A stretch of 18,305 bases of DNA from a virus. Taxonomy: Duplodnaviria > Heunggongvirae > Uroviricota > Caudoviricetes. Shown piece after piece: positions 1 through 17,091 of this stretch. The translations under genes and the position numbers were made by a program. The DNA lies in IMG/VR virus record IMGVR_UViG_2529292906_000017; one strand, written 5' to 3'. How positions within the stretch are numbered: position 1 is the stretch's first letter; each line of letters begins with the position of its first letter. The notes beneath the pieces were generated by a model. That model was not told the origin of the DNA and searched no databases. It saw only the letters and a program-made list of their open reading frames with translations.

Positions 1-1284
1 TTACAGACTTCTGGAAGGTTGCGCAGCTCTTACAACACGCGGTTGATCTTCCGCAGCGTCTTCCAGCGCACTTAAATCACGGTCTTTCACCTCTGGCATT
101 TTCAGCGCAGAGATTAAACCAATCACTGAATATGCCATGATCATAATGGCGATCGGATACCAGGATTCCGTCATGGTGCAGAAAATACCCGCCAGGATAG
201 GACCAAAACCGGAAGCGATAAGACCACCAATTTCTTTAGAAATAGCCATCCGGGTAAAGCGGTTTTTACAGCCGAACATTTCTGCCATGGTAATGTTTTC
301 CAGAGCAAATAATCCCAGCACCGCACAGTTATGAATCACAATCAGTGCAACCATAATGGTGCTCGGGGCATAGCTTTTATCTACAATGATAGAAAGCATT
401 GGCCATGCCAGCACAATCGCGGAGGTATTCATAATAATATACGGGATCCGGCGACCAATTTTATCGGATAACCAACCAAGGAACGGAATGGTCATAAAGC
501 CGAGAATCGAACTGATCATCAATGCATCTGTTGGAATTGCTTTGTTAAACAATAACGTCTGCACTAAATAGCCTGCAAGGAAAGTCTGAATTAACCCGGA
601 GTTACCCGCCTGACCAAAACGCAGCCCTGTTGCCAGCCAGAAGGATTTGCTCTGGAACATGCTACCAGCAGGTGCAGGTTTTGCTGTCGGTTGGTTACTG
701 TCGTTAACCTTCTCAAAGACCGGGCTTTCTTTCAGATTCATACGCAACCAGATAGCAAAGACCATCACGACAACACTCGCCAGGAACGGTATACGCCATC
801 CCCACGCCAGCAGTTCCTCTTTACTGAGAATGAAGAACATAAAGGCCCAGATTGCCGTTGCGCTCAAGGTTCCGCAGTTAGTTCCCATAGCCACAAATGA
901 GGAGATAATTCCGCGCTTACCTTTTGGCGCATATTCCGCCAGCATCGTACCGGCACCGGAAATTTCCGCACCTGCACCCAACCCCTGAATAATACGCAAC
1001 GTCACCAGCAAGATGGGTGCAAAAACACCAATCTGTGCATAGGTCGGTAACACACCAATTAAGGTGGTACAGATCCCCATCATGGTGATGGTAATAAAGA
1101 GCACTTTTTTACGCCCTATTCTGTCGCCCATTTTGCCGAAAATAAATGCTCCGACAATACGCGCCACATAACCTGCACCGTAGGTTCCCATTGCCAGAAT
1201 TAACGCCATTGCCGTTGATGATTCAGGAAAAAATATTTCATGAAACACTAACGCTGCGCCGAGCGAATATAACTGGAAATCCAT
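1..1284 (-). CDS. ydfJ: MFS transporter (metabolite:H+ symporter family), probably 5'-truncated at the prophage junction
   Basis: 427-aa ORF with MFS motif GDRIGRKKVLF and multiple hydrophobic helices. The first Met aligns with the internal (E-W)-x-D-F position of MHS transporters and an in-frame stop lies 2 codons upstream, so about 25 N-terminal residues are missing. Confidence 0.8.
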   Translation of the reverse strand: MDFQLYSLGAALVFHEIFFPESSTAMALILAMGTYGAGYVARIVGAFIFGKMGDRIGRKKVLFITITMMGICTTLIGVLPTYAQIGVFAPILLVTLRIIQGLGAGAEISGAGTMLAEYAPKGKRGIISSFVAMGTNCGTLSATAIWAFMFFILSKEELLAWGWRIPFLASVVVMVFAIWLRMNLKESPVFEKVNDSNQPTAKPAPAGSMFQSKSFWLATGLRFGQAGNSGLIQTFLAGYLVQTLLFNKAIPTDALMISSILGFMTIPFLGWLSDKIGRRIPYIIMNTSAIVLAWPMLSIIVDKSYAPSTIMVALIVIHNCAVLGLFALENITMAEMFGCKNRFTRMAISKEIGGLIASGFGPILAGIFCTMTESWYPIAIMIMAYSVIGLISALKMPEVKDRDLSALEDAAEDQPRVVRAAQPSRSL

Positions 1285-1887
1285 AATTCACAGGTGTTTT
1301 TTCCCATCCTGTGGTTTCCTTGGCGTTTTCTAGGTTTTTTCAGATAGTTGCATTTTTTAAAAAGCATCCTAAGTTCGATCTCAGTGTCTATCTGGGGCCC
1401 ATTTCTGTCCCATATATGCCCCAAAAAAACTCCTCAACAGATAAGTAGTTTTTTCATGGAGTTACGCGTAAAATCAATAACGGCTGGAAATCATTCAATA
1501 CTCGCACTATCGAAAAATTTACCAGCCAACCGCAGCACGTTCTTGCATAAGGCGTGTCTGCGGTTTTTCAACTATTCAGATACATCACTCCCATCACATT
1601 CATTCCTCCACATCAAAGGCATATAGGCTATATCACCTTGATATTTTTCTTCTTCAGATAAAAACTGTTATCTATGTATACTTTTAAACCCAATCCGTGT
1701 AGAGTCTCTGCATAAGATAGTTTGCAGTTGCCACTTCAGCTTGCGCCATAAACCGCCTGATTTTTGCCGCCATCTGTTAGCATTCCTGTATACCTGAAAC
1801 GACAATGTTTATCTACGAACTTTAAGAACACCCAGGATAAAAATTGTCAACTATATCATATATAACACATTATTAATTCGAGGCTAT

Positions 1888-2001
1888 ATGAACAGCATAC
1901 TGATAATCACTTCGCTCCTTATCATATTCAGCATTTTTAGTCATGCTCTAATAAAATTAGGGATTGGCATATCCAATAACCCAGACAAAACCGATGTATA
2001 A
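1888..2001 (+). CDS. Candidate small hydrophobic protein (37 aa), unassigned
   Basis: ATG at 1888 preceded by GAGG about 8 nt upstream; translation [37 protein letters not shown] has one predicted TM helix. Not in the ORF track (under 60 aa). Could be chance in AT-rich DNA. Confidence 0.2.
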
Positions 2002-2069
2002 GTCAACATATCCTGAATCAGACATACAATATCGCAATGAAAATCAATAATATTTTAAGGAATATATTC

Positions 2070-2302
2070 ATGAAATCAAAAGACACCCTAAAGTGGTTCC
2101 CTGCGCAGCTTCCTGAAGTCAGAATTATCCTAGGGGATGCTGTAGTGGAAGTAGCAAAACAGGGAAGACCTATCAATACCAGAACATTGCTTGATTACAT
2201 TGAAGGAAACATAAAGAAAAATCATGGCTGGATAACAAAGAATTATTACAAACAGCGATATCAGTTCTTAAAGACAACCAAAATTTAAATGGTAAAATGT
2301 AA
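2070..2302 (+). pseudogene. ydfK: YdfK/YnaE-family cold-shock-induced protein with an apparent 1-bp contraction in an A run
   Basis: N-terminal part MKSKDTLKWFPAQLPEVRIILGDAVVEVAKQGRPINTRTLLDYIEGNIKK is in the frame of track ORF 2037..2288. A second open frame (KSWLDNKELLQTAISVLKDNQNLNGKM, stop 2300..2302) joins it only if the A5 run 2217..2221 were A6, giving 77 aa. Confidence 0.55.
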
Positions 2303-2618
2303 TATAATAAACTTACTTCTTTATCATTTTTCCACTTTAACAACATTTTGCTCCACTTTTCCACGACCAAACAACTTGAAATCTGGTTAAAATAACACGC
2401 AACACTATTCTTCTTCCTTGAGTCCGCCCGGAACTCGAAAAACAAACCGAGTTAAAGCCATTTTTCACAAAATCGATTTTGGGTCTCACCAAAGTTACGG
2501 GGTTGCATACGCATTCGTTTATTTTCGAACGTGTACATACAAATATGCACAAAAATAATCAAAATTATTTTCTGAGATGCATTATGATATGAACACCAAT
2601 TTCGTATAGAGTCTCACT

Positions 2619-3209
2619 ATGTCTCGAATTTTTGCTTACTGTCGGATATCAACGCTGGATCAGACCACCGAAAATCAACGCCGGGAAATCGAAAGTGCAG
2701 GTTTTAAAATCAAACCTCAGCAAATAATCGAAGAACACATTAGCGGCTCAGCAGCAACCAGTGAGCGTCCTGGTTTTAACCGGTTGCTTGCTCGCCTGAA
2801 ATGTGGTGATCAATTGATTGTGACAAAACTGGATCGCCTTGGTTGTAATGCAATGGATATCAGGAAAACAGTGGAACAACTGACCGAAACAGGTATCAGA
2901 GTGCATTGCTTAGCATTGCGGGGCATTGACCTGACCAGTCCAACAGGAAAAATGATGATGCACGTAATTTCAGCAGTCGCTGAATTTGAACGAGACCTTT
3001 TACTTGAACGCACTCATTCCGGGATAGTAAGAGCCCGCGGCGCAGGGAAACGTTTTGGTCGACCACCTGTGTTAAATGAAGAACAGAAACAGGTGGTATT
3101 CGAACGAATTAAGTCAGGTGTAAGTATAAGTGCCATTGCCCGGGAATTCAAAACCTCGCGGCAAACCATTTTAAGAGCCAAAGCAAAACTTCAGACACCT
3201 GACATATAA
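2619..3209 (+). CDS. pinQ: Serine recombinase / DNA invertase (Hin/Gin/Pin family)
   Basis: 196-aa ORF; N-terminus [20 protein letters not shown] carries the resolvase/invertase catalytic Ser motif and there is a C-terminal HTH ([20 protein letters not shown]). Symbol inferred from Qin-like context. Confidence 0.88.
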
Positions 3210-3306
3210 AAAATAATCTCGGTGTGAGATGCTTTACGTCTTCCAAGCCCCCTTCCTTGCCGTAAATGGAGAGATACATCTAATTATAGAATTTATATGT
3301 TTTACC

Positions 3307-3882
3307 CTACGGCAGTGCTGGCCATTCAATATCCGGTGCAGTTGATGTATCAACACGGTTCAGCAACACCCGATACTTTTTCCAGGCTTCCAGCAACAAG
3401 GTTTCTTCCTCCGTTGCGATCTCCAGATCCACAGCATCCTGAAGCGGCGCTATATGCTCACTGGCTATCTGCATCAGGCTGTTTTTTGTTTCTTCCGCCT
3501 CCCGGATCCGGAACAGTTTTTCTGCTTCCGTATCCTTCACCCAGGCTGTGCCGTTCCACTTCTGATATTCCCCTCCCGGCGATAACCAGGTAACATTTTC
3601 CGGTAACGGACCGAGTTCAGAAATAAATAACGCGTCGCCGGAAGCCACGTCATAAACCGTTTTACCCCGATGATCTTCAACGAGATGCCACGATGCCTCA
3701 TCACTGTTGAAAACAGCCACGAAGCCTGCCGGAATATCTGGCGGTGCAATATCGGTACTGTTTGCTGGCAGACCTGTATGAGGCGGAATATATGCGTCAC
3801 CTTCACCAATAAATTCATTAGTTCCGGCCAGCAGATTATAAATTTTTATGGTCCGTGGTTGTTCACTCATTCTGAATGCCAT
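3307..3882 (-). CDS. tfaQ: Tail fiber assembly protein (lambda Tfa-like)
   Basis: 191-aa ORF, near-identical over its length to lambda Tfa as recalled ([24 protein letters not shown]...). Start overlaps the stop of the upstream stf fragment. Confidence 0.85.
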
Positions 3883-4190
3883 TACGCAAGCCTCACAATA
3901 TAGTTAAATGCGATGTTTTTGACGGTGTTTTCCGCGTTACCAGCAGCGTTAACGGTGATGGTATGTCCATGTGAACCAATCGCAACGGAGTGCGTATGAG
4001 CACCAATACCGACAGTATGTGCGTGTGCACCTGCGCTTGCAGCAGTACCCGATACAGAGTGCGTATGAGCGCCTGCAGAAGAAGTGTTAACACTGTATTT
4101 AGAATAATCAGGTGATCCACTTCCCGGAGCACCACTGGAACCACCTGAAACAAATGTCATCGAATGGGTATGTGCACCGGCTGTCCCCAT
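3882..4190 (-). pseudogene. stfQ: C-terminal remnant of side tail fiber protein (Stf) with GAHTHS repeats
   Basis: 102-aa ORF with repeated GAHTHS motifs, ending [11 protein letters not shown] as in lambda Stf C-terminus. Only about 100 codons remain; the upstream part is replaced by a J fragment in another frame. Confidence 0.75.
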
Positions 4191-5437
4191 GCATTTACCG
4201 CCCGGACTGTCAGCCTGTAATTTCCCAGCGCCAGCTGCGTGAAGCGATATGTGGTTTCCGTCGTCCGGGCCGTGCTGACCAACCGCTCACTGCCGTCGTC
4301 CGCTGCCACGGTCAGGCGAAGCATAAAGCTCACCCCCTTCACCACCTTCGGCGTGTCCCAGCGCGCCAGCACCTGGTATTCCCCGCTGTCTGCGGTGACT
4401 TCTGCGGTCAGGTGCTGAACTGCTGGCGGCGTGACACCATTCACCGTGCCGCTCTGGTCACCGTCAAAGTGCGCCCCGTTATCCACGATGGCTTCTTTCT
4501 CCGGTACATGCTGCACGGCAGTGATGGCATACGTACCGTCATCGTTCTCACGGATACTCACACAGCGGAACAGGCGCTGACGCAGCGTCGGCAGCTTCAG
4601 CCCCCACACGCTGTACTCGGCAACGCCGTCAGGAACCCGGCTCACTTTCACCTTCACGCCGTCGGTGACGGACTGGACCTCCACGCTCACCGGATTACCC
4701 TGCCCGTCAACCAGGCTTATCAGCGTGGTGCCGGAGGATGGCAGCGTGATTTCACGGTCGAGCGTCAGTGTCCGCGTCTGGCTGTTCACCGCCAGCACGC
4801 GCCCGCCGATGCTGATCCCCGCATAGTCATCATCACAGATTTCAATGACATCACCTGGTACATGGCGAAGCCCTTCGGCACCCACGCTGAAGTCCACGGT
4901 CTGCGTTTCCAGCAGTTCCGTTTTAATCAGCCACAGCCCGGCTCGGTGCGCCTGCCCCCGCCTGGTACAGCCAAAGGCATCCATCTTCGTGACGTTACGA
5001 CCGTAACGGGCAATGGCCTGCGTGTCCTCCACAAGCTCTGTCGCCGTCTCCCAGCCGTTATCCGGGTCAATCCAGTTCACCTCAACGGCATTATGGCGGT
5101 CCTTCAGGGCGCTGAAGCTGTAGCGGAACGGCGCGCCATCATCCGGCATCACCACATTACTGCGGTTATAGGTCCACACCTTATCTGATGGTCGGTCCTG
5201 CACGAACGTCAGCGTCTGCCCGTTCCATACCGGCATACAGCGCATCGCCGAGCAGAAATCACTGAGAACATCCCACGCCTTACGCTGTGTGGTCAGCCAG
5301 GCATTACAGGTGATGCGCGGCTCCGTGCCGCCAAAACCGTCCGGCACCGACTGGTCGCAACACTGGCCGATGACATACAGCGCCCATTTATCCACATCTG
5401 CCGCACCAAGACGTTTACCCATGCCGTAGCGCGGGTG
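4157..5437 (-). pseudogene. Internal fragment of tail tip / host specificity protein J (lambda gpJ-like)
   Basis: Translation from HPRYGMGKRLGAADVDKWALYVIGQ to [11 protein letters not shown] matches lambda J mid-region closely. The first 29 residues of the 455-aa track ORF are an out-of-frame read of Nu1 DNA, and the C-terminus diverges 7 codons before the stop. Confidence 0.8.
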
Positions 5438-5672
5438 GCTGGAGATCTGTCTCGCTGGCCTGCCGCAGTTCTTCAACTTCCCGGCGCAGCTTTTCGTTCT
5501 CAATTTCAGCATCCCTTTCGGCATACCATTTTATGACGGCGGCAGAATCATAAAGCACCTCATTACCCTTGCCACCGCCTCGCAGAACGGGCATTCCCTG
5601 TTCCTGCCAGTTCTGAATGGTACGGATACTCGCACCGAAAATGTCAGCCAGCTGCTTTTTGTTGACTTCCAT
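5415..5672 (-). pseudogene. nohQ: Terminase small subunit Nu1, N-terminal DNA-binding fragment fused into J-derived sequence
   Basis: Translation MEVNKKQLADIFGASIRTIQNWQEQGMPVLRGGGKGNEVLYDSAAVIKWYAERDAEIENEKLRREVEELRQASETDLQP matches lambda Nu1 residues 1-79; homology ends at about 5436 and the frame then reads into J DNA. Confidence 0.8.
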
Positions 5673-5679
5673 TGTTCAT

Positions 5680-5880
5680 TCCACGGACAAAAACAGAGAA
5701 AGGAAACGACAAAGGCCAAAAAGCCCGCTTTCAGCACCTGTCGTTTCCTTTCTTTTCAGGGGGTATTTTAAATAAAAACATTAAGTTACGACGAAGAAGA
5801 ACGGAAACACCTTAAACCGGAAAATTTTCATAAATAGCGAAAACCCGCGAGGTCGCCGCCCCGTAACCTGTCGGATCACC
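5680..5880 (-). other. Lambda-type cos site (cosB, cosN at 5850..5861, cosQ-side flank)
   Basis: Reverse complement of 5673..5861 is GGGCGGCGACCTCGCGGGTTTTCGCTATTTATGAAAATTTTCCGG...GTCCGTGGAATGAACA, i.e. the lambda left end with about 5 substitutions and no indels as I recall it, directly upstream of the Nu1 start. Confidence 0.75.
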
Positions 5881-6060
5881 GGAAAGGACCCGTAAAGTGA
5901 TAATGATTATCATCTACATATCACAACGTGCGTGGAGGCCATCAAACCACGTCAAATAATCAATTATGACGCAGGTATCGTATTAATTGATCTGCATCAA
6001 CTTAACGTAAAAACAACTTCAGACAATACAAATCAGCGACACTGAATACGGGGCAACCTC

Positions 6061-6294
6061 ATGTCAACGAAGAACAGAACCCGCAGAACAACAACCCGCA
6101 ACATCCGCTTTCCTAACCAAATGATTGAACAAATTAACATCGCTCTTGAGCAAAAAGGGTCCGGGAATTTCTCAGCCTGGGTCATTGAAGCCTGCCGCCG
6201 GAGACTGTGCTCAGAAAAAAGAGTTTCTTCTGAAGCAAACAAAGAAAAGAGTGACATTACTGAATTGCTCAGAAAACAGGTCAGACCTGATTGA
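6061..6294 (+). CDS. ynfO: Small ribbon-helix-helix-like prophage protein (77 aa)
   Basis: 77-aa ORF MSTKNRTRRTTTRNIRFPNQMIEQINIALEQKGSGNFSAWVIEACRRRL; basic N-terminus plus beta-strand/helix pattern typical of Arc/CopG-type folds. Symbol from Qin gene order; fold assignment is inference. Confidence 0.6.
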   Translation: MSTKNRTRRTTTRNIRFPNQMIEQINIALEQKGSGNFSAWVIEACRRRLCSEKRVSSEANKEKSDITELLRKQVRPD

Positions 6295-6351
6295 AGCAAT
6301 TTAGATAATCGTGCAGACTACGCCCCCTCATATCACATGGAAGGTTTATCT

Positions 6352-6762
6352 ATGGATCAGGTAGTCATTTTTAAACAAATATTTGATAAAGTTCGAAACG
6401 ATTTAAACTATCAATGGTTTTATTCTGAGCTAAAACGTCACAATGTCTCACATTACATTTACTATTTAGCCACAGAGAATGTTCATATTGTATTAAAAAA
6501 TGATAATACAGTGTTATTAAAGGGCCTAAAAAACATTGTGTCTGTCAAATTTTCAAAGGATAGGCATCTTATAGAAACGACCTCTAATAAGCTGAAATCC
6601 AGAGAGATCACATTTCAGGAATACAGAAGAAACCTTGCTAAAGCAGGAGTTTTTCGGTGGGTTACAAATATCCACGAACAAAAAAGATATTACTATACCT
6701 TTGATAATTCATTACTATTTACTGAAAGCATCCAGAAAACTACACAGATCTTACCACGCTAA
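6352..6762 (+). CDS. ydfO: DUF1398-family prophage protein
   Basis: 136-aa product from the second Met ([30 protein letters not shown]...); the track ORF 6337..6762 adds 5 codons. Placement after ynfO and before gnsB matches Qin order. Confidence 0.7.
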
Positions 6763-6913
6763 ACCATAACGTCCGGCTTCTCTCACTCCTGAGCCGGACT
6801 GCATTGGTTTAATAAAAACCATCAACAATTGTGATTTAGATATTCGGAACCATTCAAATATAACAAAACCCCGTAAAAACGAGGTTTATGGATAAATTTT
6901 ATTATTGAATACA

Positions 6914-7086
6914 TCAGATTAAATTAATCTTGACATCATAGCTTTCAAGACCCGTCATTTTTTCCCGTGCGGTAAACTGAATACTGGTAACTTCTTTCCC
7001 GGTCTTTTTCTTAAGTTCAATAATTTTTTTGTTATATATTCAGAAATATCTGCTTCTGCTTTTGTTTTTAAGTTTTCAATATTCAT
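6914..7086 (-). pseudogene. gnsB: GnsA/GnsB-family protein with an apparent 1-bp contraction in a homopolymer
   Basis: From ATG at 7084..7086 the frame gives MNIENLKTKAEADISEYITKK and stops at 38 aa. A second frame reads IIELKKKTGKEVTSIQFTAREKMTGLESYDVKINLI to stop 6914..6916. They join into a 57-aa GnsB only if the T7 run 7024..7030 were T8. Confidence 0.65.
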
Positions 7087-7257
7087 CATTTCCTCTTTTA
7101 GTCTGTTATGACTTTCCAGTTACACAGTAAGTCGATTATATGGTGCAAACGTGTAAAAGATAAGATGAAACATCGCAATAATCAACATACGATAGTCTAA
7201 ATTTTACACAAACAGACAAAGAGAATTTTCCTGAATTATCAATGCAATAGCATCAAA

Positions 7258-7412
7258 TCAACTCAAGAGCCTTATTGCTGCTTCCAGAATTTCTTCTGAA
7301 GTAACATGTCGATCCGCGGCTACATAAATGACTTTATGATCTCCGGTCAGAGATGGAAACCCTGCGGCCATTACAGTAAGGTGTGTTTTTCGCCATTTGG
7401 ATATTCACGCAT
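7258..7412 (-). pseudogene. ynfN: YnfN-like cold-shock-induced small protein with an apparent 1-bp contraction in a homopolymer
   Basis: ATG at 7410..7412 gives MREYPNGEKHTLL then stop. With one extra A in the run 7386..7390 the frame reads MREYPNGEKTHLTVMAAGFPSLTGDHKVIYVAADRHVTSEEILEAAIRLLS (51 aa), stop 7258..7260. Confidence 0.5.
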
Positions 7413-7529
7413 GATGGTGTTAACTCCAGTCATCGCTGGCACTACCACTGCTGGTTCAGAGTTAAAAAAACTATGATTTTTTCATGATGTTACCGTAGTA
7501 TGTGAGTATCCATCGAATAGACACCAAGC

Positions 7530-7560
7530 AAAAAAGCTCCCGAAGGAGCCTTCATTTTCA
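7530..7560. terminator. Hairpin with flanking A and T runs (possible bidirectional terminator downstream of cspI)
   Basis: AAAAAAGCTCC-CGAA-GGAGCC followed by TTCATTTTCACTTTTTT; on the minus strand the stem is followed by TTTTTTGC. Confidence 0.4.
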
Positions 7561-7756
7561 CTTTTTTAAATCCAACGACAGACGGCTGGCATTTAAGTAT
7601 TGTGAAATATTATCAAATGTAATCATCATTGATTTACAAAAGATACATTTTGCCCCGAAAGGATTCATGTCAGAAACATCAAAAGATGATGTTCTATACT
7701 GGGAACCATGACAACACGGGCATCTAAAGTGAATATGGTTTGTAATATTGTCTACC

Positions 7757-7969
7757 TCAAAGCGCCACTACATGAACAGCGGCAGGACCTTTAGGTCCGT
7801 TCTCAATACCAAATTCAACTTCCTGATTCTCAGTTAATGTTTTGAAATCGTTGCTCTGAATTGCTGAGAAATGGACAAACACATCTTTGCTGCCATCTTT
7901 CGGCGTGATGAAACCAAAACCTTTTTCAGGGTTAAACCATTTCACTAAACCAGTCATTTTGTTAGACAT
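7757..7969 (-). CDS. cspI: CspA-family cold shock protein
   Basis: 70-aa [41 protein letters not shown] with RNP1/RNP2-like motifs (KGFGFI, VFVHF). Confidence 0.9.
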
Positions 7970-8330
7970 AATTATTACCTTTTGAAGAAATTAGCCCTTG
8001 GGCAGAATGGTCCGAAAAAAATATCAGAGAGAAAAACCAACAAGGAAATCTCAAGAGGTACAAATAATAAAATTATAACAATGACTGCTTCAGATAAATT
8101 TGTAACAAACCAGAACACCATTAACGCATGATTAACCACCCATAGCAAGGATTACTTTTGTAAAGAAAAACACAGCAATGAAAGAATAGCTTTATTTATT
8201 AATAAAACGTGTCATTCTGATTAAGACCTTTTATCTTACCCTTAAGATTTCAGGAATTTTGGCTCATGGAAGAGTCCTTTTTATTTAAATTTTACATTCC
8301 GCGATGTAAATGTTCCGATTTAATATTACC

Positions 8331-9353
<1,023 letters not shown>

Positions 9354-9357
<4 letters not shown>

Positions 9358-9665
9358 AGATATTTATGATGAGGACGCTCGTGCTTATTGGCAGGATTTT
9401 CAATCTTAAAGGAGTACTGATGCTGCAGATAAGACTCAACTTTTTCTGACAATTTTTCTGCTACTTCCAGGAAGACTTGCCGGACGCTCCTTCTGGCTGC
9501 TGCCTCATAAAACTCCAGCGCAGCTCCTTCAACACGGTCCATGGCGACATCCAGGTCAAAAATTTCACCGTCAAAGCGTTCTTTGTCCTGTAAGGCTACA
9601 GTTACCGTAACTTTATTCTCAAAATTACGGACTCCTTTCACAACCAGTTCATAGTCTTGAGTCAT
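9354..9665 (-). CDS. ydfR: DUF1327-family prophage protein located between holin and endolysin
   Basis: 103-aa ORF MTQDYELVVKGVRNFENKVTVTVALQDKERFDGEIF...; 4-bp overlap with the endolysin start. Function unknown. Confidence 0.7.
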
Positions 9666-9669
9666 TGGA

Positions 9670-9885
9670 TTACTCTCCTCTCGCAGCCTTACGCCTGTCT
9701 TCTTTAATCTTGAAATAAAGATTTGTCAGATACGTCAGCAGGCCAAAAACCAGGCTACCCAGCACACCGATTGCAGCCCACTGTGACGGAGTTACTTTAT
9801 CGAGTAACTGCAATGCCCAGAAACCAGCATTACCCGCCGATGTGCCATAGGCAACACCTGTTGTTAACTTATCCATTGATTTCAT
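9670..9885 (-). CDS. essQ: Class II holin (phage 21 S-like pinholin) with dual-start motif
   Basis: 71-aa product [71 protein letters not shown]; two TM helices, Met1/Met4 dual start, charged C-terminus. The track ORF 9670..9960 extends upstream. Confidence 0.85.
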
Positions 9886-10104
9886 ATCCTCACCCCGATG
9901 TACACGGATGGTGCAATATGTTTGAAAAGATCGGAGTCTACGGGGTAGTTTTGACAGCACACGTTGTTCTCAACGGCGCTAAAAAAACATACACATTAAA
10001 AATGTGGGTAATTATTTTGAAAGAAAGTCATATATAAAATAATAATACGAGAAATGTTTTCATATTTAGTGTACTGTATACGGCCATTTATACAGGAAAA
10101 GCCT

Positions 10105-10275
10105 ATGTCAGAACGTAAAAACTCAAAATCACGCCGTAATTATCTCGTTAAATGTTCCTGCCCAAACTGCACCCAAGAGTCAGAACACAGTTTTTCAAGA
10201 GTACAAAAAGGTGCCCTTTTGATCTGCCCTCATTGCAACAAAGTATTCCAGACAAATCTTAAAGCTGTAGCCTGA
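10105..10275 (+). CDS. Small zinc-ribbon-like protein (56 aa), unassigned
   Basis: ATG at 10105 preceded by AGGAAAAG; MSERKNSKSRRNYLVKCSCPNCTQESEHSFSRVQKGALLICPHCNKVFQTNLKAVA has CxxC...CxxC spacing. The track ORF starts upstream at 10054. Confidence 0.45.
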   Translation: MSERKNSKSRRNYLVKCSCPNCTQESEHSFSRVQKGALLICPHCNKVFQTNLKAVA

Positions 10276-10333
10276 TTGATTTTATTAGTAACAAGTATTT
10301 TTTATATTTTAATAATATATTTAAAGCAGATAA

Positions 10334-10362
10334 TAAAAAACCCGCCTGAGCGGGTTTGAGAT
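10334..10362. terminator. Rho-independent terminator-like hairpin (stronger on the minus strand)
   Basis: AAAAAA-CCCGC-CTGA-GCGGG-TTT; reverse complement gives stem plus T6. Confidence 0.45.
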
Positions 10363-10517
10363 TGTGGTGCTTTTTGTGGGAGTCATCCACTTACGCACTT
10401 TGTTTTGCCATGCCAGCAGTTAGCTTCTGCTGTAAAACTATTCATGCAGCAAACCTGCACTTCACCACAATGGTTAGCATACTTTTCCTGATTAAGATTT
10501 TGGGTAATGACTCCAAC

Positions 10518-10895
10518 TTATTGATAGTGTTTTATGTTCAGATAATGCCCGATGACTTTGTCATGCAGCTCCACCGATTTTGAGAACGACAGCGACTTCC
10601 GTCCCAGCCGTGCCAGGTGCTGCCTCAGATTCAGGTTATGCCGCTCAATTCGCTGCGTATATCGCTTGCTGATTACGTGCAGCTTTCCCTTCAGGCGGGA
10701 TTCATACAGCGGCCAGCCATCCGTCATCCATATCACCACGTCAAAGGGTGACAGCAGGCTCATAAGACGCCCCAGCGTCGCCATAGTGCGTTCACCGAAT
10801 ACGTGCGCAACAACCGTCTTCCGGAGCCTGTCATACGCGTAAAACAGCCAGCGCTGGCGCGATTTAGCCCCGACGTATCCCCACTGTTCGTCCAT
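10518..10895 (-). CDS. insB: IS1 InsB transposase domain (InsAB' C-terminal part)
   Basis: [65 protein letters not shown]... matches IS1 InsB. Confidence 0.8.
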
Positions 10896-10914
10896 TTCCG
10901 CGCAGACGATGACG

Positions 10915-11214
10915 TCACTGCCCGGCTGTATGCGCGAGGTTACCGACTGCGGCCTGAGTTTTTAAATGGCGGAAAATCGTGTTGAGGCCAACGCCCATAA
11001 TGCGGGCAGTTGCCCGGCATCCAACGCCATTCATGGCCATATCAATGATTTTCTGGTGCGTACCGGGCTGAGAGGCGGTGTAAGTGAACTGTAGTTGCCA
11101 TGTTTTACGGCAGTGAGAGCAGAGATAGCGCTGATGTCCGGCAGTGCTTTTGCCGTTACGCACCACGCCTTCAGTAGCGGAGCAGGAAGGACATCTGATG
11201 GAAATGGAAGCCAC
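10915..11214 (-). CDS. insA: IS1 InsA with altered C-terminus from a shortened A-run at the frameshift site
   Basis: [43 protein letters not shown]... is InsA (zinc finger plus HTH), but the ORF ends ...[18 protein letters not shown] (99 aa) instead of ...RHLKNSGRSR (91 aa) because TTTAAAAACTC has A5 where IS1 has A6C. Confidence 0.8.
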
Positions 11215-11413
11215 GCAAGCACCTTAAAATCACCATCATACACTAAATCAGTAAGTTGGCAGCATTACCAGATTTTGCCAAATATGCTAGCCATTGTTTC
11301 ATGTATTGGACCTCCTTACTTTTTATTAAAGAGATCCAATATTCACTACTCTGTCCGTATCTCTACTCAGGCATCAGCCTTCTTCGTTATCGTATACAGA
11401 CGAGCGATGAATT

Positions 11414-11629
11414 TTAATCAGTAATGATGACATTTGCTGCTGCAGGACCTTTAGCACCACTCTCTATAGAGAAGGTAACCTTTTGACCTTCAAATAAGGT
11501 TCGATAATTATCATTCTGAATCGCAGAAAAATGCACAAACACATCTTTACTACCATCAACAGGAGAAATAAAGCCGAAACCTTTATCAGCGTTAAACCAT
11601 TTTACTAAACCAGTCATTTTATTTGACAT
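11414..11629 (-). CDS. cspB: CspA-family cold shock protein
   Basis: 71-aa [41 protein letters not shown]..., paralogous to the ORF at 7757..7969. Confidence 0.9.
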
Positions 11630-11929
11630 TCTACATTCCTTAACTTGAGCCTTTCGGCATAAATGGTTTGCATAACAGAAACGACTTCGTACTTAATTGG
11701 AGAGACTCAAAGAAGGAATAAGTGAATAACACCTGAAATGAGAACTGCTTTAGTAAACTACTTCGTATATCGTCTGTTCTTCAAACCGACGCAATCATTA
11801 ACGCATAGTTGAACATATGAAGCAATGTTTATTTTAGACATCCAGCCATCTTCAACCCCATCAAAAAACTATAGCTTTCTTCAGGAACGTGTGTATAGTG
11901 CGCCAAGTTATCAGTATTAAGGAATTTTT

Positions 11930-12142
11930 TTGTCCCGTAAAATGACAGGAATTATCAAAACCTTTGACGGCAAAAGCGGCAAGGGTCTTATCACCCCATC
12001 CGATGGTCGTATCGATGTCCAGCTTCATGTTTCAGCGCTCAATCTCCGCGATGCAGAAGAAATTACCACCGGATTACGCGTGGAATTTTGCCGGATAAAT
12101 GGTCTGCGTGGCCCTTCAGCTGCCAATGTTTACCTTTCATGA
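11930..12142 (+). CDS. cspF: CspA-family cold shock protein paralog, apparent TTG start
   Basis: 70-aa ORF (M)[43 protein letters not shown]...; first codon at 11930 is TTG, with AAGGA upstream. Confidence 0.8.
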
Positions 12143-12196
12143 GCTATATTAAAGCTTTAATTTCAGGCCCCATCGGATCACACATGGAGAGTTTTT

Positions 12197-12286
12197 ATGA
12201 ATAACCCCGTCTGTCTTGATGACTGGTTGATTGGCTTTAAAAGCTTATGCTGTACTTTGGCCGTAATAGCTCTGCTAATAATATAA
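12197..12286 (+). CDS. Candidate small membrane peptide (29 aa), unassigned
   Basis: ATG at 12197 preceded by GGAGAG; [29 protein letters not shown] has a hydrophobic C-terminus. Very short; could be chance. Confidence 0.2.
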
Positions 12287-12440
12287 TAAGCAGACTCATT
12301 GTGTTTAGGGACATTGTACTGGAAGAAAACATTTTAAACATCAGGCAAATAACCAAGTCACCAGCTAAATAATAAGTTAACAGACATGAGTCCCGGGATG
12401 AGATTCAACATTACCATTGCCCCATTTAAAGCACAAAACC

Positions 12441-12464
12441 CGCTCATCAGCGGGTTTTCTACTT
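12441..12464 (-). terminator. Terminator hairpin about 100 nt downstream of the Q gene (tR'-like)
   Basis: AAACCCGCT-CATC-AGCGGGTTTT with T-rich tails on both strands. Confidence 0.5.
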
Positions 12465-12502
12465 TTTCTTAACGTCGGGTATACAAAGCCCATCGTTGAA
12501 AA

Positions 12503-12531
12503 ATTTTATCCATATTTTTTGAAAAATGCAA
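12503..12531 (-). promoter_or_regulatory. Putative Q-dependent late promoter (pR'-like)
   Basis: On the minus strand TTGCAT (12526..12531), a 17-nt spacer, then TAAAAT (12503..12508), immediately downstream of the Q stop and upstream of the terminator hairpin. Arrangement resembles lambdoid pR'-tR'. Confidence 0.35.
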
Positions 12532-12562
12532 ACATCATGTCGCCATCTTCAGCAAAAATCAT

Positions 12563-13315
12563 TTATCTCGTCACCTTCCTCAATTGCGCTTCCGCGTATG
12601 CTTCTTCCTGCCAGCACTTTGTTACCAGTTTACCAATGACGTCCGCATACCCCTTATACCACTGATAATCGGTCAGGTCTGGTACCAGCTTCTGGACATG
12701 ACGTCGTGCCAGCGTGGTCGGTAAACGACTAAACCGGTTTCCATTACAACGCCCACAAATCTTATATACCGGTACGCCATGAAACCGGGTTCTTTTTTCA
12801 TCCAGAACAATCCCTTTACCCTTACACCCTCTGCACGCTGTGCTGGCTTCGCCCTTACCATGGCAATGCTGACATAGTTCCTTCACCCATTCTTCCTTGA
12901 TTACAGATTCCCCGCGTCTGTAGTGTTTCACCACTTCGCGCAATACATTATAAAATCCCGTACCTGAACAATGCTCACAGCGAGCCTTACTTGCCGCAGA
13001 CCTGGAGTAATCAGCAAAGGCAAAACTCACGAGGTAAGGAATAATCTGTAACCGGATTTCTTCACTCAATTTGTTCAATGTCGGGTTATCCAGTGCCATC
13101 GCGTAATTTAGCAGGCCTTCAATCGCAAACTGAGGGTCCTGAACACCAACTTTTGCCAGAAATAAGGCCAACCCAAGTGGTGCTTTCGACTGCACCATCC
13201 CCTGCGCTGCCATTACATCCGTAATTGTTAAACAACCGGTGCCTGTCGCTGGAGCGTCATCGCTCAATTTTGGAGATTTTGGGGAGTAATATTTTGGTAA
13301 GGCTTCAAGGTTCAT
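12563..13315 (-). CDS. quuQ: Late-gene antiterminator Q (phage 82-type)
   Basis: 250 aa from MNLEALPKYY...; Cys-rich zinc-binding region CEHCSGTGF...CQHCHGKGE...CRGCKGKG...CGRCNGN. The track ORF 12563..13345 adds 10 upstream codons. Confidence 0.85.
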   Translation of the reverse strand: MNLEALPKYYSPKSPKLSDDAPATGTGCLTITDVMAAQGMVQSKAPLGLALFLAKVGVQDPQFAIEGLLNYAMALDNPTLNKLSEEIRLQIIPYLVSFAFADYSRSAASKARCEHCSGTGFYNVLREVVKHYRRGESVIKEEWVKELCQHCHGKGEASTACRGCKGKGIVLDEKRTRFHGVPVYKICGRCNGNRFSRLPTTLARRHVQKLVPDLTDYQWYKGYADVIGKLVTKCWQEEAYAEAQLRKVTR

Positions 13316-13328
13316 GCTCGTTCTCCAC

Positions 13329-14417
13329 TTACGCCAGTACGCCAATTGCCAGCGCGCGATCGATAAAACGAAATATCAGCTCCAGTTGGGAGCCATACTT
13401 ATCTTCAAATGCCACTGTATCCGTATGCAGCTCGTTGTGATGCTTTCTGCACAAAGGCAACACAAAGAGATCATGTGCTTTTGTTCCCATTCCGCCCTGC
13501 CCGTGACCAATCAGATGATGCGGATCGTCGGCTGGCATACCGCAGCAAGCACACGGCTGTGTCTTAACCCAACGTGTGTATTTCTCCTTAACCCAGCGGC
13601 GACGTTTAGGCAGCTTCATGAAAGATTCCGGAGACTCTGGATCAACGGTGATGCTTACCACCGTCTTTTCCTGTGGTGATTTTTGTTGCTGGTGGGCGTA
13701 AGGCAACGGTGCAAGATTTTTTGTGCGTTGTTTCAATATGCTGGTGGCGGTCTGCTCTCCCGGTACGATGTCGCTTTCGCGGTACACCGAGCAGATTTTT
13801 TCCGCTGGTAATCCCAGCGAACGACGCGATACAGCCTCAGGTAGTGCATCCACCACCTGATTGCAGACCGCCCACCAGGATAATTCAGCCAAAGATAATT
13901 CCCGCTCCTGCGTACCGCTTATTGCGTGACGGATGACGTCAATCACCCATGCTGTCAGATTTTGTTGAGCAAGCAGCTCCAGTGATTCCGATGTCTGGTC
14001 ACGCAGTTGGTTGTCGCAGTGCCAGCACAACACCATTGCGCCGGTACCATAACGGTGAATGACTGTTTCAGTGTGATGGTAATCGCCATTAGGCCACTGG
14101 CAGGATGTAACATGACGTAATAGCCAGTCGGACAATGCGCCAACGCCGCCAGCAGCACGAATCACCCGTTCGTTACTAAAAAACGGCAGCAATGTTTTGT
14201 CTTCCGCCAGCGGCTGGCGAACGGCAGGAACGACTCCGGATGGCAGATTACGCATGCTTTTTGGTTCCGGTTCCACCAGCACTCGAGGATTATGAAATAT
14301 CTGTATGGATTCACGGCCCGGCTTAAGGACCACCAGCCCAAGCTCAGGCACCAGAACAGGTCTAAGTAATACCCGCACGTTACCTCCAGATCCGTTGCTG
14401 GAAAGTGCGGGACGCAC
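13329..14417 (-). CDS. ydfU: DUF968-family prophage protein with Cys/His cluster
   Basis: 362-aa track ORF; C-terminal region TQPCACCGMPADDPHHLIGHGQGGMGTKAHDLFVLPLCRKHHNELH suggests a metal-binding (HNH-like) motif. True start uncertain (Met1 or Met55). Confidence 0.7.
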   Translation of the reverse strand: MRPALSSNGSGGNVRVLLRPVLVPELGLVVLKPGRESIQIFHNPRVLVEPEPKSMRNLPSGVVPAVRQPLAEDKTLLPFFSNERVIRAAGGVGALSDWLLRHVTSCQWPNGDYHHTETVIHRYGTGAMVLCWHCDNQLRDQTSESLELLAQQNLTAWVIDVIRHAISGTQERELSLAELSWWAVCNQVVDALPEAVSRRSLGLPAEKICSVYRESDIVPGEQTATSILKQRTKNLAPLPYAHQQQKSPQEKTVVSITVDPESPESFMKLPKRRRWVKEKYTRWVKTQPCACCGMPADDPHHLIGHGQGGMGTKAHDLFVLPLCRKHHNELHTDTVAFEDKYGSQLELIFRFIDRALAIGVLA

Positions 14418-14658
14418 GTGGTGGGCGTTCGGAATAAGGCAGCCTGACAGAGATTATCCAGTGCCGATAGTCGAGACTGAGAGCTTTCTTAACCTCGAAC
14501 CCGCGCCTGCGGTAAGAATGAATCAGCCATTCGGCCTGTTCTGCAGTGCATGGAGGGTGCTGGAACCATTCAGACTTGAATGCGTGAGAATACCGCCCGT
14601 GCGTGCAGGCAAGAACGGGCGAATTATCAGAATTGTAATATTTTGCGTTGCGTGCCAT
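14380..14658 (-). CDS. Hypothetical 92-aa protein overlapping the ydfU start, unassigned
   Basis: ATG preceded by GGAGAAAAC; MARNAKYYNSDNSPVLACTHGRYSHAFKSEWFQHPPCTAEQAEW... contains a C-x-H...H...C arrangement. Overlaps ydfU by 38 nt in a different frame. Confidence 0.4.
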   Translation of the reverse strand: MARNAKYYNSDNSPVLACTHGRYSHAFKSEWFQHPPCTAEQAEWLIHSYRRRGFEVKKALSLDYRHWIISVRLPYSERPPRASRTFQQRIWR

Positions 14659-14724
14659 CGGTTTTCTCCGGTGGCACGGTGTTACTCAGCGGGAGTTCAG
14701 CCCCGCGCAAGATTGTAGATGAGT

Positions 14725-14976
14725 TTATTCTCCTGAAAAAGCAGAAAAGCCAGCTTTTATTCCGATCTCTTTCAATGCCTGTAATGAAGTGACAAACTCA
14801 CCTTCGCGCAAGATAAATCCGTCCGTGACCCGAGCATCCACAAAATTAATTAACGCAGCCCCATTCTTTCGCAAACACATAATGCGGTAATGACTAACAA
14901 GATTTCCATTTTCAACGCACACAGCATAGAGGCCATCTTCACAAAAAATTTTACGCAGTTCTTCGATGTTCATCAT
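14725..14976 (-). CDS. rem: Rem-like 83-aa prophage protein
   Basis: 83-aa ORF MMNIEELRKIFCEDGLYAVCVENGNLVSHYRIMCLRKNGAALINFVDAR... between ydfU and hokD; symbol assigned from position and length only. Confidence 0.45.
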   Translation of the reverse strand: MMNIEELRKIFCEDGLYAVCVENGNLVSHYRIMCLRKNGAALINFVDARVTDGFILREGEFVTSLQALKEIGIKAGFSAFSGE

Positions 14977-15087
14977 CAGAATCCTTCCGGATAATTAGCT
15001 CTCCCCTTTAAGGGACCATCCCTCTTATCCCTGCGCGCTACTTAAGTATTTTTGATTCTATTCCGGCACCGTCCAGAACTTCAAACG

Positions 15088-15121
15088 CGTTGAAAATAAA
15101 AACAAAAACCCGCCGAAGCGG
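15088..15121 (-). terminator. Rho-independent terminator downstream of hokD
   Basis: Minus strand reads AACCCGC-TTCG-GCGGG followed by TTTTTGTTTTTATTTT; lies 70 nt past the hokD stop. Confidence 0.55.
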
Positions 15122-15192
15122 GTTAAGTGCGGGTGCGTTGAGGATGCCTGCCACATCAGAGGTGGCGAGGGATTTCTCCCCCGCCGGGTCTC

Positions 15193-15348
15193 TTACTCCT
15201 CAGGTTCGTAAGCTGTGAAGACAGCGACCTCCGTCTGGCCGGTTCGGATTCGTACCTCGCAGAGGTCTTTCCTCGTTACCAGTGCCGTCACTATGACGGT
15301 TAAACAGATGACGATCAGGGCGATTAACATCGCCTTTTGCTGCTTCAT
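15193..15348 (-). CDS. hokD: Hok-family type I toxin
   Basis: Reverse-complement translation MKQQKAMLIALIVICLTVIVTALVTRKDLCEVRIRTGQTEVAVFTAYEPEE (51 aa), GGAG upstream; not in the ORF track (under 60 aa). Confidence 0.85.
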   Translation of the reverse strand: MKQQKAMLIALIVICLTVIVTALVTRKDLCEVRIRTGQTEVAVFTAYEPEE

Positions 15349-15419
15349 AGCCTGCTTCTCCTGTCAACGCAAAGCAGAAGTGTCACCTTCGGTGCGAAAC
15401 AGAGATGTCATGCTTTGGT

Positions 15420-15707
15420 TCAGAGAATGCGTTTGACCGCCTCGCTATATACTTCCGAGCGTTCTCTTTTCCCAACAGAAATCACGAAAACGACAACTTT
15501 CTCGTCTATAACCTGGTATACAAGGCGATAGCCTGAAGACCGGAGCTTAATCTTGTAACAATCAGGCATACCACGGAGCTTGTTTGCTTCAATCCGGGGT
15601 GACTCAAGTACTTCAACCAGCTTCTTTTTCAACTGTTCACGTACCGTCGAGCCCAGCTTTCGCCATTCCTTTAGTGCCCGCTCGTCAAAATCCAGAAAAT
15701 ACGCCAT
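15420..15707 (-). CDS. relE: RelE mRNA interferase toxin (type II TA)
   Basis: 95-aa ORF MAYFLDFDERALKEWRKLGSTVREQLKKKLVEVLESPRIEANKLRGMPDCYKIKLRSSGYRLVYQVIDEKVVVFVISVGKRE. Confidence 0.9.
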   Translation of the reverse strand: MAYFLDFDERALKEWRKLGSTVREQLKKKLVEVLESPRIEANKLRGMPDCYKIKLRSSGYRLVYQVIDEKVVVFVISVGKRERSEVYSEAVKRIL

Positions 15708-15946
15708 CAGAGTTCATCCAGCGTCACACGTACTGGCTTAGGATTACGAAGCCGTTCTTTCACTATCTCCACAAGTTCAGCATCTTCATCACTCAGGAGT
15801 GTCTGTTTGAACGGCAAGCGTTCATTGTCAGCGATATACTCGAGCATGAGACGAAGCGCTTCAGAAGGAGTTACACCCATTTTTTCAAGCGCGGCGTAAG
15901 AACGCGCTTTAAGTTCATCGTCAATACGCAGGTTAATGCTACCCAT
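15707..15946 (-). CDS. relB: RelB antitoxin (ribbon-helix-helix)
   Basis: 79-aa ORF MGSINLRIDDELKARSYAALEKMGVTPSEALRLMLEYIADNERLPF...; 1-bp overlap with the relE start. Confidence 0.9.
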   Translation of the reverse strand: MGSINLRIDDELKARSYAALEKMGVTPSEALRLMLEYIADNERLPFKQTLLSDEDAELVEIVKERLRNPKPVRVTLDEL

Positions 15947-15957
15947 GTCTTACACCT

Positions 15958-15983
15958 CTTGTAATTACAAATGTCATTACAAG
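15958..15983 (-). promoter_or_regulatory. relBE operator (relO-like inverted repeat) at the relB promoter
   Basis: CTTGTAATTACAAATGTCATTACAAG contains inverted TTGTAAT/ATTACAA repeats immediately upstream of the relB SD (AGAGGTG). Confidence 0.6.
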
Positions 15984-16149
15984 TATCGCACTACAACATG
16001 CTTAGGGCAAGTCACGAAGGAAGTCAGAAAGTAGTCGTAAGAACGGTGATCACTGTCCGCTTTGTGCCAGGAGCAGCCATTGCTAAGTCCATCCTGTATT
16101 GTGCAGGTCAGCTCGTTTTTAAAGAGTCCGGCCATCATCTTACTGGTAC

Positions 16150-17037
16150 AGACACCATATACTTTGTGACGGTCTGAATCGCCACGGATAATCTAGACAC
16201 TTCCGAGCCGTTGATAATACTGGTTTTCATATTCTGTCGGTGACATCTGATCGCTGGAACCATGCCGACGCTTACTGTTATAAAACATTTCGATGTAATC
16301 AAAAATATCGCTGCGGGCTTCTTCCCGCGTTCCGTAGATCTTTTTCTTTATCCGTTCACGTTTCAACAACTGGAAAAAACTTTCTGCAACCGCATTATCA
16401 TGGCAGTTACCGCGACGGCTCATGCTACCCTCCAGGCCGTGTGATTTCAGGAACGACTGCCACTCATGGCTTGTGTACTGACTGCCCTGATCCGAATGAA
16501 CCAGCACCTTTTTTTCGGGATTACGCCGCCATACAGCCATCAGCAGTGCGTTCAGGACAATGTCCTTTGTCATCCGGGATTGCATGGACCAGCCGATAAT
16601 TTTGCGTGAGAACAGATCAACAACAACGGCAAGATACAGCCAGCCTTCGTGGGTCCTGATGTAGGTTATGTCCGTTACCCAACGCTCATCAGGAGCATCC
16701 GGATTGAACTGTCGCTGGAGCCTGTTGGGTGACACGATACTGGCCTCGCCTTTACGTGCCCGCGGGCTTCGGTATCCGACCTGAGCCTTTATTCCGACAC
16801 GTTTCATCAGTCTCCAGACTCTGTTTACTCCGCACTGTTGCCCGCTGTCACGCAGATCCAGATGGATTTTGCGATAACCATAGACGCATCCCGATTCCAG
16901 CCAGAACTGTTTAATCTGTCCTGTCAGTCTCAGGTCTGCCTGATGGCGTTGTGAATGCGGCTGCTGAAGCCAGGCGTAAAAACCACTGGGATGAACATCC
17001 AGCACCCGACAGAGCAGGCGAACAGGCCAGCAACAGG
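16150..17037 (-). mobile_element. IS600-like IS3-family element, truncated where the next IS begins; outer boundary approximate
   Basis: Contains a complete orfB; its reading frame continues open upstream to 17037, where the TGAACCGCCCCGG terminus of the next IS begins, so orfA and the other end lie outside the window. Confidence 0.7.
16193..17005 (-). CDS. IS3-family transposase OrfB (IS600-like), DDE integrase domain
   Basis: 270-aa ORF (GTG start) with ...WVTDITYIRTHEGWLYLAVVVDLFSRKIIGW...HSDQGSQYTS...CHDNAVAESFF, the DDE motif region of IS3-family transposases. Confidence 0.85.
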   Translation of the reverse strand: MLDVHPSGFYAWLQQPHSQRHQADLRLTGQIKQFWLESGCVYGYRKIHLDLRDSGQQCGVNRVWRLMKRVGIKAQVGYRSPRARKGEASIVSPNRLQRQFNPDAPDERWVTDITYIRTHEGWLYLAVVVDLFSRKIIGWSMQSRMTKDIVLNALLMAVWRRNPEKKVLVHSDQGSQYTSHEWQSFLKSHGLEGSMSRRGNCHDNAVAESFFQLLKRERIKKKIYGTREEARSDIFDYIEMFYNSKRRHGSSDQMSPTEYENQYYQRLGSV

Positions 17038-17091
17038 TGAACCGCCCCGGAAATCCTGGAGACTAAACTCCCTGAGAAAGAGGTAAACAGG

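Follow-up and report, generated by a model that had tools for sequence, protein, structure and literature searches.

The window analyzed here, the 18,305-nucleotide stretch of IMG/VR record IMGVR_UViG_2529292906_000017, begins inside a host gene, and its positions 1276–1286 are almost certainly the integrase-distal junction of a Qin-type prophage that integrated site-specifically in codons 28–31 of the transporter gene ydfJ, with the ORF next to it being a likely non-functional remnant. In lambda naming this junction is attR. It is a deterministic sequence feature and not a statistical one, and nothing that we found contradicts integration. A first-pass annotation of the window had placed a host–prophage junction at 1250–1320, within the 5' end of an MFS transporter gene, and the host/phage boundary does lie there, within the eleven positions given above. 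The splitting of ydfJ by Qin is real, ordinary, and already known and published. Integration of Qin at the ydfJ 5' end was described together with the loss of the promoter and of 28 N-terminal codons (PMC6379469), and ydfJ is listed as the Qin insertion site in genome papers (PMC3032704; PMC2608844). The attB, attP, attL and attR of ydfJ prophages were defined by Nakamura et al. (2021), and an attP-containing PCR amplicon was sequenced from the ydfJ prophage of strain 11368 (PMC8112680).

The Truncated ydfJ ORF

The remnant, ydfJ', is a 427-aa ORF on the minus strand at 1–1284 that reaches the window edge. By its reading frame and by its identity with K-12 and M217, it consists of codons 29–455 of intact ydfJ plus the stop codon at 1–3. 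Its N-terminus is MDFQLYSLGAALVF and its opening residues read MDFQLYSLGAALVFHEIFFPE. The ORF had been described as starting at an internal conserved motif with an in-frame stop two codons upstream, and both observations hold. The YdfJ motif is E-F-M-D-F and the ORF begins at its Met, the ATG at 1284–1282 being inside the conserved L-E-F-M-D-F. Upstream of it there is an Ile codon (1287–1285) and then a phage-supplied in-frame TGA (1290–1288, minus strand), two codons 5' of the ATG, that closes the frame on the phage side. At the position of this TGA attB reads CTT GAA TTT ATG (L-E-F-M). The upstream DNA is AT-rich, as had been noted: GC content in 200-nt windows is 0.29–0.40 over 1201–2700 compared with 0.43–0.52 over 1–1300.

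ydfJ' has 0 differences in 1284 nt from the K-12 ydfJ ORF, and again 0 differences in 1284 nt from the matching part of the intact 455-codon ydfJ of M217, so the remnant shows no sign of decay. Gene callers take the internal Met29 as the start of the remnant. K-12 RefSeq still annotates ydfJ as a 427-aa CDS, and the ydfJ of AH21 is labelled by PGAP as "incomplete; missing N-terminus".

The Attachment Core and the Phage Arm

Intact ydfJ alleles had been proposed as a means to define the attachment core. In a four-way comparison we set the window junction against the K-12/AH21 far junction, the unoccupied M217 site and the attP of the free phage HannyBb. The comparison gave an 11-bp common core, GAAATCCATAA (1276–1286), which in gene orientation is TTATGGATTTC (TT ATG GAT TTC) and covers the last two bases of codon 28 and codons 29–31. 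In the attB of M217 the core is flanked by ...aatataactg on the left and attcaagcgc... on the right, and in the attP of HannyBb by ...catgactctt and ttcacaggtg..., respectively. The window junction has the attB left flank, the core and the attP right flank; the far junction has the attP left flank, the core and the attB right flank. Over 30 nt, the left flank of the window agrees with attB at 30/30 positions and with attP at 7/30, the right flank agrees with attP at 30/30 and with attB at 7/30, and the far junction of K-12 and AH21 is 30/30 to attP on its left and 30/30 to attB on its right. Every junction flank matches one of its parent sites at 30/30 positions and the second at 7/30. As attB, attP and the junctions at the two prophage ends all contain the core, the crossover falls inside it, and the proposed integration of a prophage into the transporter gene is borne out by this attB and attP comparison. 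Beyond the core there is a 1-nt indel followed by four further agreeing bases (TTCA), which probably explains the published att of 18 or 19 bp (PMC8112680). An inverted repeat (CACAGG...CCTGTG) is found by the core, and RNA folding of 1270–1360 was used to test it as a possible sib/tI-type element such as lambda has behind int; the result was not significant (z −1.85, with 7/200 shuffles as good).

The phage arm at the int-distal end (1287–1684, plus strand) is contiguous with the integrase gene in free phages. An attP of 809 nt was reconstructed by placing the core between 400 nt from the int side and window 1285–1684; it is present in one piece (98.5–99.3%) in phages HannyBb, Tritos, PhiR42_1 and mEp460_ev081. 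The order in HannyBb is exonuclease–xis–int–attP–small ORFs–DNA invertase–tail fibre, which is a circular permutation of the arrangement in the window. The window stops in IS elements before the integrase end, which is known from the relatives AH21 and K-12. The far junction of AH21, beside rspB, has an excisionase and an integrase that is intact at 426 aa and contains the Arm-DNA-bind_2 and Phage_integrase domains; in K-12 intQ is a pseudogene and Qin is defective.

Empty and Occupied Sites in E. coli

The empty site was searched for with a 1200-nt query made of window 685–1284 and 600 nt past the K-12 far junction. Of 5426 complete E. coli genomes, 2007 gave a single match covering at least 80% of the query, and the single-piece matches listed are 100% identical over all 1200 nt. 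In the empty-site strain M217, ydfJ is 1368 nt long (455 aa), is separated by 57 nt from rspB upstream and by 88 nt from ydfI downstream, and shares one strand with rspA, rspB and ydfI. The 84 nt upstream of Met29 are open, in frame and directly after rspB in the empty-site genomes. The occupied junction was searched for with a 300-nt probe centred on the window junction, at least 80% of which was covered in 3169 of the 5426 genomes; empty-site genomes match this probe only to its position 156 (window 1290), as expected. A prophage with homologous arms therefore occupies the ydfJ site in ~58% of complete E. coli genomes, and the site is empty in ~37%. The first 2.7 kb of the window matches ~2000 complete E. 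coli genomes with up to 99.9%, with ydfJ, ynfT, ydfK and pinQ annotated. A 427-codon ydfJ that has the same upstream sequence and adjoins rspB without mobile DNA was found in none of the genomes tested.

The Displaced 5' Piece

The first-pass annotation had suggested looking for the displaced N-terminal fragment at the far prophage end, and there it was seen, in K-12 and AH21, as ynfP. In K-12 this 36-aa gene adjoins rspB at the far Qin end and encodes MTIEKHERSTKDLVKAAVSGWLGTALEFMDFKSHAC; its 28 native ydfJ codons are followed, past the shared core, by 5 phage-encoded codons. The 84-nt ydfJ 5' piece is thus retained in the occupied genomes of K-12 and AH21, and the two pieces rejoin into the intact 455-codon ORF. 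The 28-codon piece is absent from the window, whose end consists of IS elements. YnfP was detected as a tagged small protein, i.e., the 5' piece is translated in K-12 (PMC6001520).

Prophage Content

The window from 1287 to 18305 is Qin-type lambdoid prophage DNA, as judged by its collinearity with K-12 Qin and AH21 and by Pfam assignments. It contains ynfT (1888–2001, by K-12/AH21 annotation), ydfK (from 2070, frameshifted by a 1-nt deletion) and pinQ (2619–3209). These are followed on the minus strand by tfaQ (3307–3882) and a J-like tail tip fragment (4157–5524), and then by a region with ydfO, gnsB, cspI, lysis, cspB and cspF and by the Q antiterminator (12563–13345, minus strand); ydfU is at 13329–14417, also on the minus strand. 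An IS1 (10503–11269) interrupts the prophage, and two IS3-family elements (16193–18305) form the window end. Collinearity with K-12 Qin holds over 1–4070 (98.5%), 5436–10502 (99.7%) and 11270–16174 (99.9%), and ends at 16174, approximately at K-12 ydfV, where the IS3-family elements break in; AH21 is collinear with more of the window than K-12 Qin. Among complete E. coli genomes none covers over 95% of the window, and the unique joint between prophage and IS at 16174 had no exact counterpart in the species-representative genomes. In K-12 RefSeq the cryptic prophage Qin spans 1632277–1652745 and overlaps the ydfJ start by 9 nt. Qin is inserted in ydfJ between ydfI and rspB, and the window junction is identical to that of K-12.

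What the Truncation Removes

The 427-aa ORF is an MHS-family MFS transporter without a complete N-terminus. It scores 453.5 bits on TIGR00883 (metabolite/H+ symporter; cut-off 443.45) and the 455-aa form scores 462.9 bits. The truncated form aligns to this profile from position 7, and the 455-aa form from position 1, which is its residue 23. With the ShiA and ProP models the truncated form aligns from profile positions 37 and 40 and the intact one from 12 and 22. Pfam MFS_1 picks up the intact protein from residue 21 and the truncated one from its residue 27, i.e., intact residue 55. Full-length orthologues of 455–458 aa are found in empty-site E. coli, Citrobacter, Enterobacter, Lelliottia and Pantoea. 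Those from other genera are ~83% identical overall, with residues 12–28 (DLVKAAVSGWLGTALEF) at least 90% conserved, and this nearly invariant segment precedes MDF in the full-length proteins. The N-terminal end of TM1 had been described as missing, and both the profiles and the full-length orthologues do extend upstream of Met29. From these alignments the remnant appears to have lost the cytoplasmic N-terminal residues and the beginning of the first membrane helix. It is also cut off from its native start, from its ribosome-binding site and from the transcription of rspAB upstream.

Structural and hydropathy approaches did not sharpen the limits of helix 1. An AlphaFold2 model of intact YdfJ (22-sequence alignment, 82–99% identity) had a mean pLDDT of 37.7 and a pTM of 0.27 and was unusable for this purpose, no PDB chain was hit by the sequence of intact YdfJ at E ≤ 1e-10, and a Kyte–Doolittle scan (19-residue window) shows a broad shallow plateau over residues 10–60 with no sharp helix boundary.

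The Same Codon in Enterobacter

Orthologues with the same N-terminus and no extra upstream coding sequence had been named as evidence against a truncation. 427-aa entries do exist in Enterobacter; these are themselves interrupted by a prophage and hence do not refute it. At all four Enterobacter loci examined, phage genes lie directly upstream of the 427-aa ydfJ: tail/tailspike genes, gtrA/gtrB-type and glucosyltransferase serotype-conversion genes, DinI and an S24 peptidase. The junction there is cacctttaaatc joined to ATGGATTTC, which resembles the E. coli arm, cacctgtgaatt joined to ATGGATTTC, and a stop is again found two codons before the Met. Enterobacter with an intact 455-aa gene keep the order rspA–rspB–ydfJ–ydfI. 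Since the interruption is at the same codon, this ydfJ codon is a prophage target in a second genus. We found no statement of this use of the codon in the literature cited here. The observation is a small extension, and all that it adds is a further host genus for an attachment site already known.

Mechanism and Alternative Explanations

The proposed explanation is that a lambda-type tyrosine integrase, coded at the far prophage end, would have recombined attP with the chromosomal attB through the 11-bp core that both contain. Integration split ydfJ such that the 5' piece stays behind rspAB at the far end (ynfP in K-12), while the 3' piece of 427 codons is severed from its start codon, ribosome-binding site and upstream rspAB transcription, and the phage-side TGA closes the frame two codons before Met29. 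Since residues 1–28, including DLVKAAVSGWLGTALEF and the start of the first membrane helix, are lost, the ORF is most likely a non-functional remnant: the 427-aa product would no longer work as a transporter, and ydfI, which lies downstream, would be expected to suffer a polar effect.

One question that can be asked is whether there is a truncation at all, or whether 427 aa is the natural full length and the 455-aa forms are start-site over-calls, as the K-12 RefSeq CDS and the presence of 427-aa entries in Enterobacter too could suggest. We give this reading practically no weight. The 84 upstream nucleotides are open, in frame and directly after rspB in empty-site genomes, the extra 28 residues are conserved across genera, MHS profiles extend upstream of Met29, and the 5' piece is translated in K-12; moreover, phage tail, gtr, DinI or S24 genes are immediately upstream of the Enterobacter 427-aa entries. 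The empty sites, the 455-aa ydfJ of M217, the Enterobacter phage genes and the residue conservation together refute it. It is just as hard to believe that another event, such as an IS-mediated deletion or a non-phage genomic island, truncated the gene. The window does have three IS elements, and K-12 Qin is defective with an intQ pseudogene. Yet nothing is deleted: 2007 genomes have the host flanks in exact continuity through a single copy of the core. The two hybrid junctions are reciprocal and no IS is found at the junction; and attP is contiguous in four free phages beside a tyrosine integrase and an excisionase. The contiguous attP and the four-way comparison refute this reading as well.

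A further option is that the truncated gene is still used, i.e., that ydfJ' (together with ydfI) is transcribed from the prophage, whether from a promoter nearby or because transcription of the Q-antiterminated late operon, which runs toward it, continues into the gene, and that initiation at Met29 gives a working or partly working transporter. The late genes, tail genes and ydfJ' share the minus strand, with the late and tail genes pointing toward ydfJ', and terminator scans gave no intrinsic-terminator-like site between tfaQ and ydfJ'. The remnant ORF is found uninterrupted in a 3723-member sequence cluster and is identical to the intact allele, and a preprint lists ydfJ among the genes differentially expressed after induction of the Qin regulator DicC (PMC11430063). 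However, the first-pass suggestion of expression from a prophage-derived promoter was left without sequence support. In the promoter scan there is no sigma-70-like site on the minus strand within ~770 nt upstream of ydfJ', the nearest promoter-like site on that strand being at about this distance, and the number of promoter-like sites is not above that in shuffles (8 vs 5.3 ± 2.4). The 13 nt before the ATG (ACACCTGTGAATT) have no Shine–Dalgarno-like purine run, and pinQ, ydfK and ynfT intervene on the strand opposite to ydfJ' and the late genes. As for the protein, the 28 missing residues take in the stretch whose conservation between genera is at least 90%, and MFS_1 picks up the truncated form only at its residue 27 (intact residue 55). 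The intactness of the ORF does not help to decide, since the comparison of synonymous and non-synonymous changes in ydfJ' between occupied and empty strains gave 0–1 differences, and a divergence this close to zero is uninformative on selection. Expression of the truncated product is therefore possible but unsupported, a functional product is unlikely, and continued use of the gene, taken as a whole, is an explanation that we doubt.

Discussion

In this work the ydfJ/Qin junction itself raises no new question, and its main consequence concerns how the genes are annotated. What K-12 and thousands of other genomes list as a 427-aa "YdfJ" is left over from a transporter of 455 aa, from which "YnfP" is the detached N-terminus, and neither should count as an independent full-length gene in functional or comparative work. 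With the site ~58% occupied and ~37% empty, strains may differ in the intactness of rspA–rspB–ydfJ–ydfI, a cluster that may have a role in the catabolism of L-gulonate or L-idonate. Searching the literature for what this cluster does (gulonate / mannonate) gave nothing usable.

Another idea, which we consider very improbable, is that the split is not a dead end. Fragments of split permeases can reassemble, and the 36-aa YnfP, which would carry the first half of helix 1, may combine with the 427-aa remnant into a working transporter. Alternatively, the prophage may be a reversible switch: in strains with intact int and xis, such as AH21, precise excision may restore ydfJ and reconnect rspA–rspB–ydfJ–ydfI, and the switch would act on sugar-acid catabolism. 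If the split were not a dead end, the use of the same codon by unrelated-looking Enterobacter prophages would reflect a conserved, exploitable target. Prophages that act as regulatory switches by active lysogeny are known, such as phi10403S in Listeria comK and skin in Bacillus sigK. As in these, the prophage here splits a gene that precise excision would restore. Unlike them, it gives no sign of regulated, reversible excision tied to host physiology, the K-12 integrase is a pseudogene and the window prophage is riddled with IS elements.

Of the known systems closest to the window, K-12 Qin has the same insertion point, core, phage arm and ydfJ' sequence as the window and shares the order ynfT, ydfK, pinQ, tfaQ ... 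cspI, lysis genes, cspB, cspF, ydfT, ydfU, rem, hokD and relBE. The two differ at window 4071–5435, where the J-like tail fragment takes the place of a 1057-nt nohA/stfQ stretch in K-12, and in the extra IS1 (10503–11269), the IS3-family elements from 16193 and the 1-nt deletion in ydfK, all of which are found in the window. The same ydfJ attachment site is used by the ydfJ-locus prophages of STEC/EPEC ("PPydfJ", PMC8112680) and by mEp460, HannyBb, Tritos and PhiR42_1, which have an attP with the same core and arms and a lambda-type integrase of the same family. Unlike the prophage in the window, these are complete or effector-carrying, and some are in tandem clusters. The att published for PPydfJ is 18 or 19 bp, a length that presumably includes imperfect matches; the block shared exactly by the sites compared here measures 11 bp.

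A lambda-type integrase site inside a protein-coding gene is also found for e14 and phage 21 in icd and for Rac in ttcA (PMC6379469). There the phage brings in a replacement for the lost end of the gene, and the ORF keeps its normal length. In ydfJ, by contrast, the phage arm supplies a stop and no substitute N-terminus, and therefore the gene is left 28 codons short and its upstream expression signals are lost.

Records sharing the Qin junction

The junction at which the ydfJ remnant (ydfJ'), the 11-bp attachment core and the phage arm of the Qin-type prophage meet is found in two further records. One of these, SMXE01000224.1, is labelled MAG: Caldithrix sp. and is a 31-kb contig that was binned as Caldithrix. 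It matches window 1-3487 with 98.8% identity, and the matching stretch takes in the Qin junction and a ydfJ' identical to that of the window; the contig almost certainly comes from E. coli and contaminates the Caldithrix metagenome-assembled genome. The other is Shigella flexneri SFBU0723, which has the same junction as the window and aligns with window 1-4034 at only 96.1% identity with 46 gap positions. No ungapped full-length copy of ydfJ' was found when it was looked for in this strain, and therefore decay of the remnant in Shigella is suggested.

Directly beside the core, the phage arm carries an inverted repeat, CACAGG-N11-CCTGTG (1290-1312), which in the free phage would fall just downstream of int. 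The region does not fold significantly better than its shuffles (z -1.85). The repeat could be a binding feature for the integrase or for an accessory protein.

Differences from K-12 Qin

Further into the prophage, the cold-shock gene ydfK (2070-2303) has a deletion of one A in an A-run at about 2216-2221, which reads AAGAAAAATC and is one A shorter than the AAGAAAAAATC of K-12, AH21 (an E. coli strain with a related prophage at ydfJ) and the free phage HannyBb. The missing A shifts the frame over the last third of the gene; it may reflect either a true mutation or an error in sequencing the homopolymer. The tail region (4071-5435) is unlike its K-12 counterpart, where a different 1057-nt stfQ/nohA stretch occupies the site, and the window's version is also present in AH21. 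This version holds a 455-aa ORF on the minus strand (4157-5524) with Phage-tail_3 and Ig_J domains, predicted to be part of a J-like tip attachment protein.

A 767-nt IS1 copy (10503-11269), which both K-12 and AH21 lack at the matching position, separates the cspB region from the lysis genes. Two IS3-family elements occupy 16175-18305: one has a minus-strand ORF for an rve transposase of 270 aa (16193-17005), and the other (17092-18305) is IS629/IS1203-like, with a plus-strand orfA (108 aa) and orfB (296 aa). Since collinearity with Qin ends at the K-12 ydfV position, the prophage of this strain may be rearranged or truncated.

Enterobacter prophages in ydfJ

In Enterobacter, at least three prophages that look different from one another break ydfJ at precisely the codon used by the Qin prophage (loci L004-L007, at about 5400-6010 on Enterobacter contigs). 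The cargo upstream of ydfJ varies with the prophage, being an acyltransferase gene, serotype-conversion glycosyltransferase genes (gtrA/gtrB-type genes together with a glucosyltransferase), or genes for DinI and a J-like tail tip protein. The phage arm of these prophages is related to that of Qin, and in both arms the second codon upstream of the ydfJ remnant's Met is a stop.
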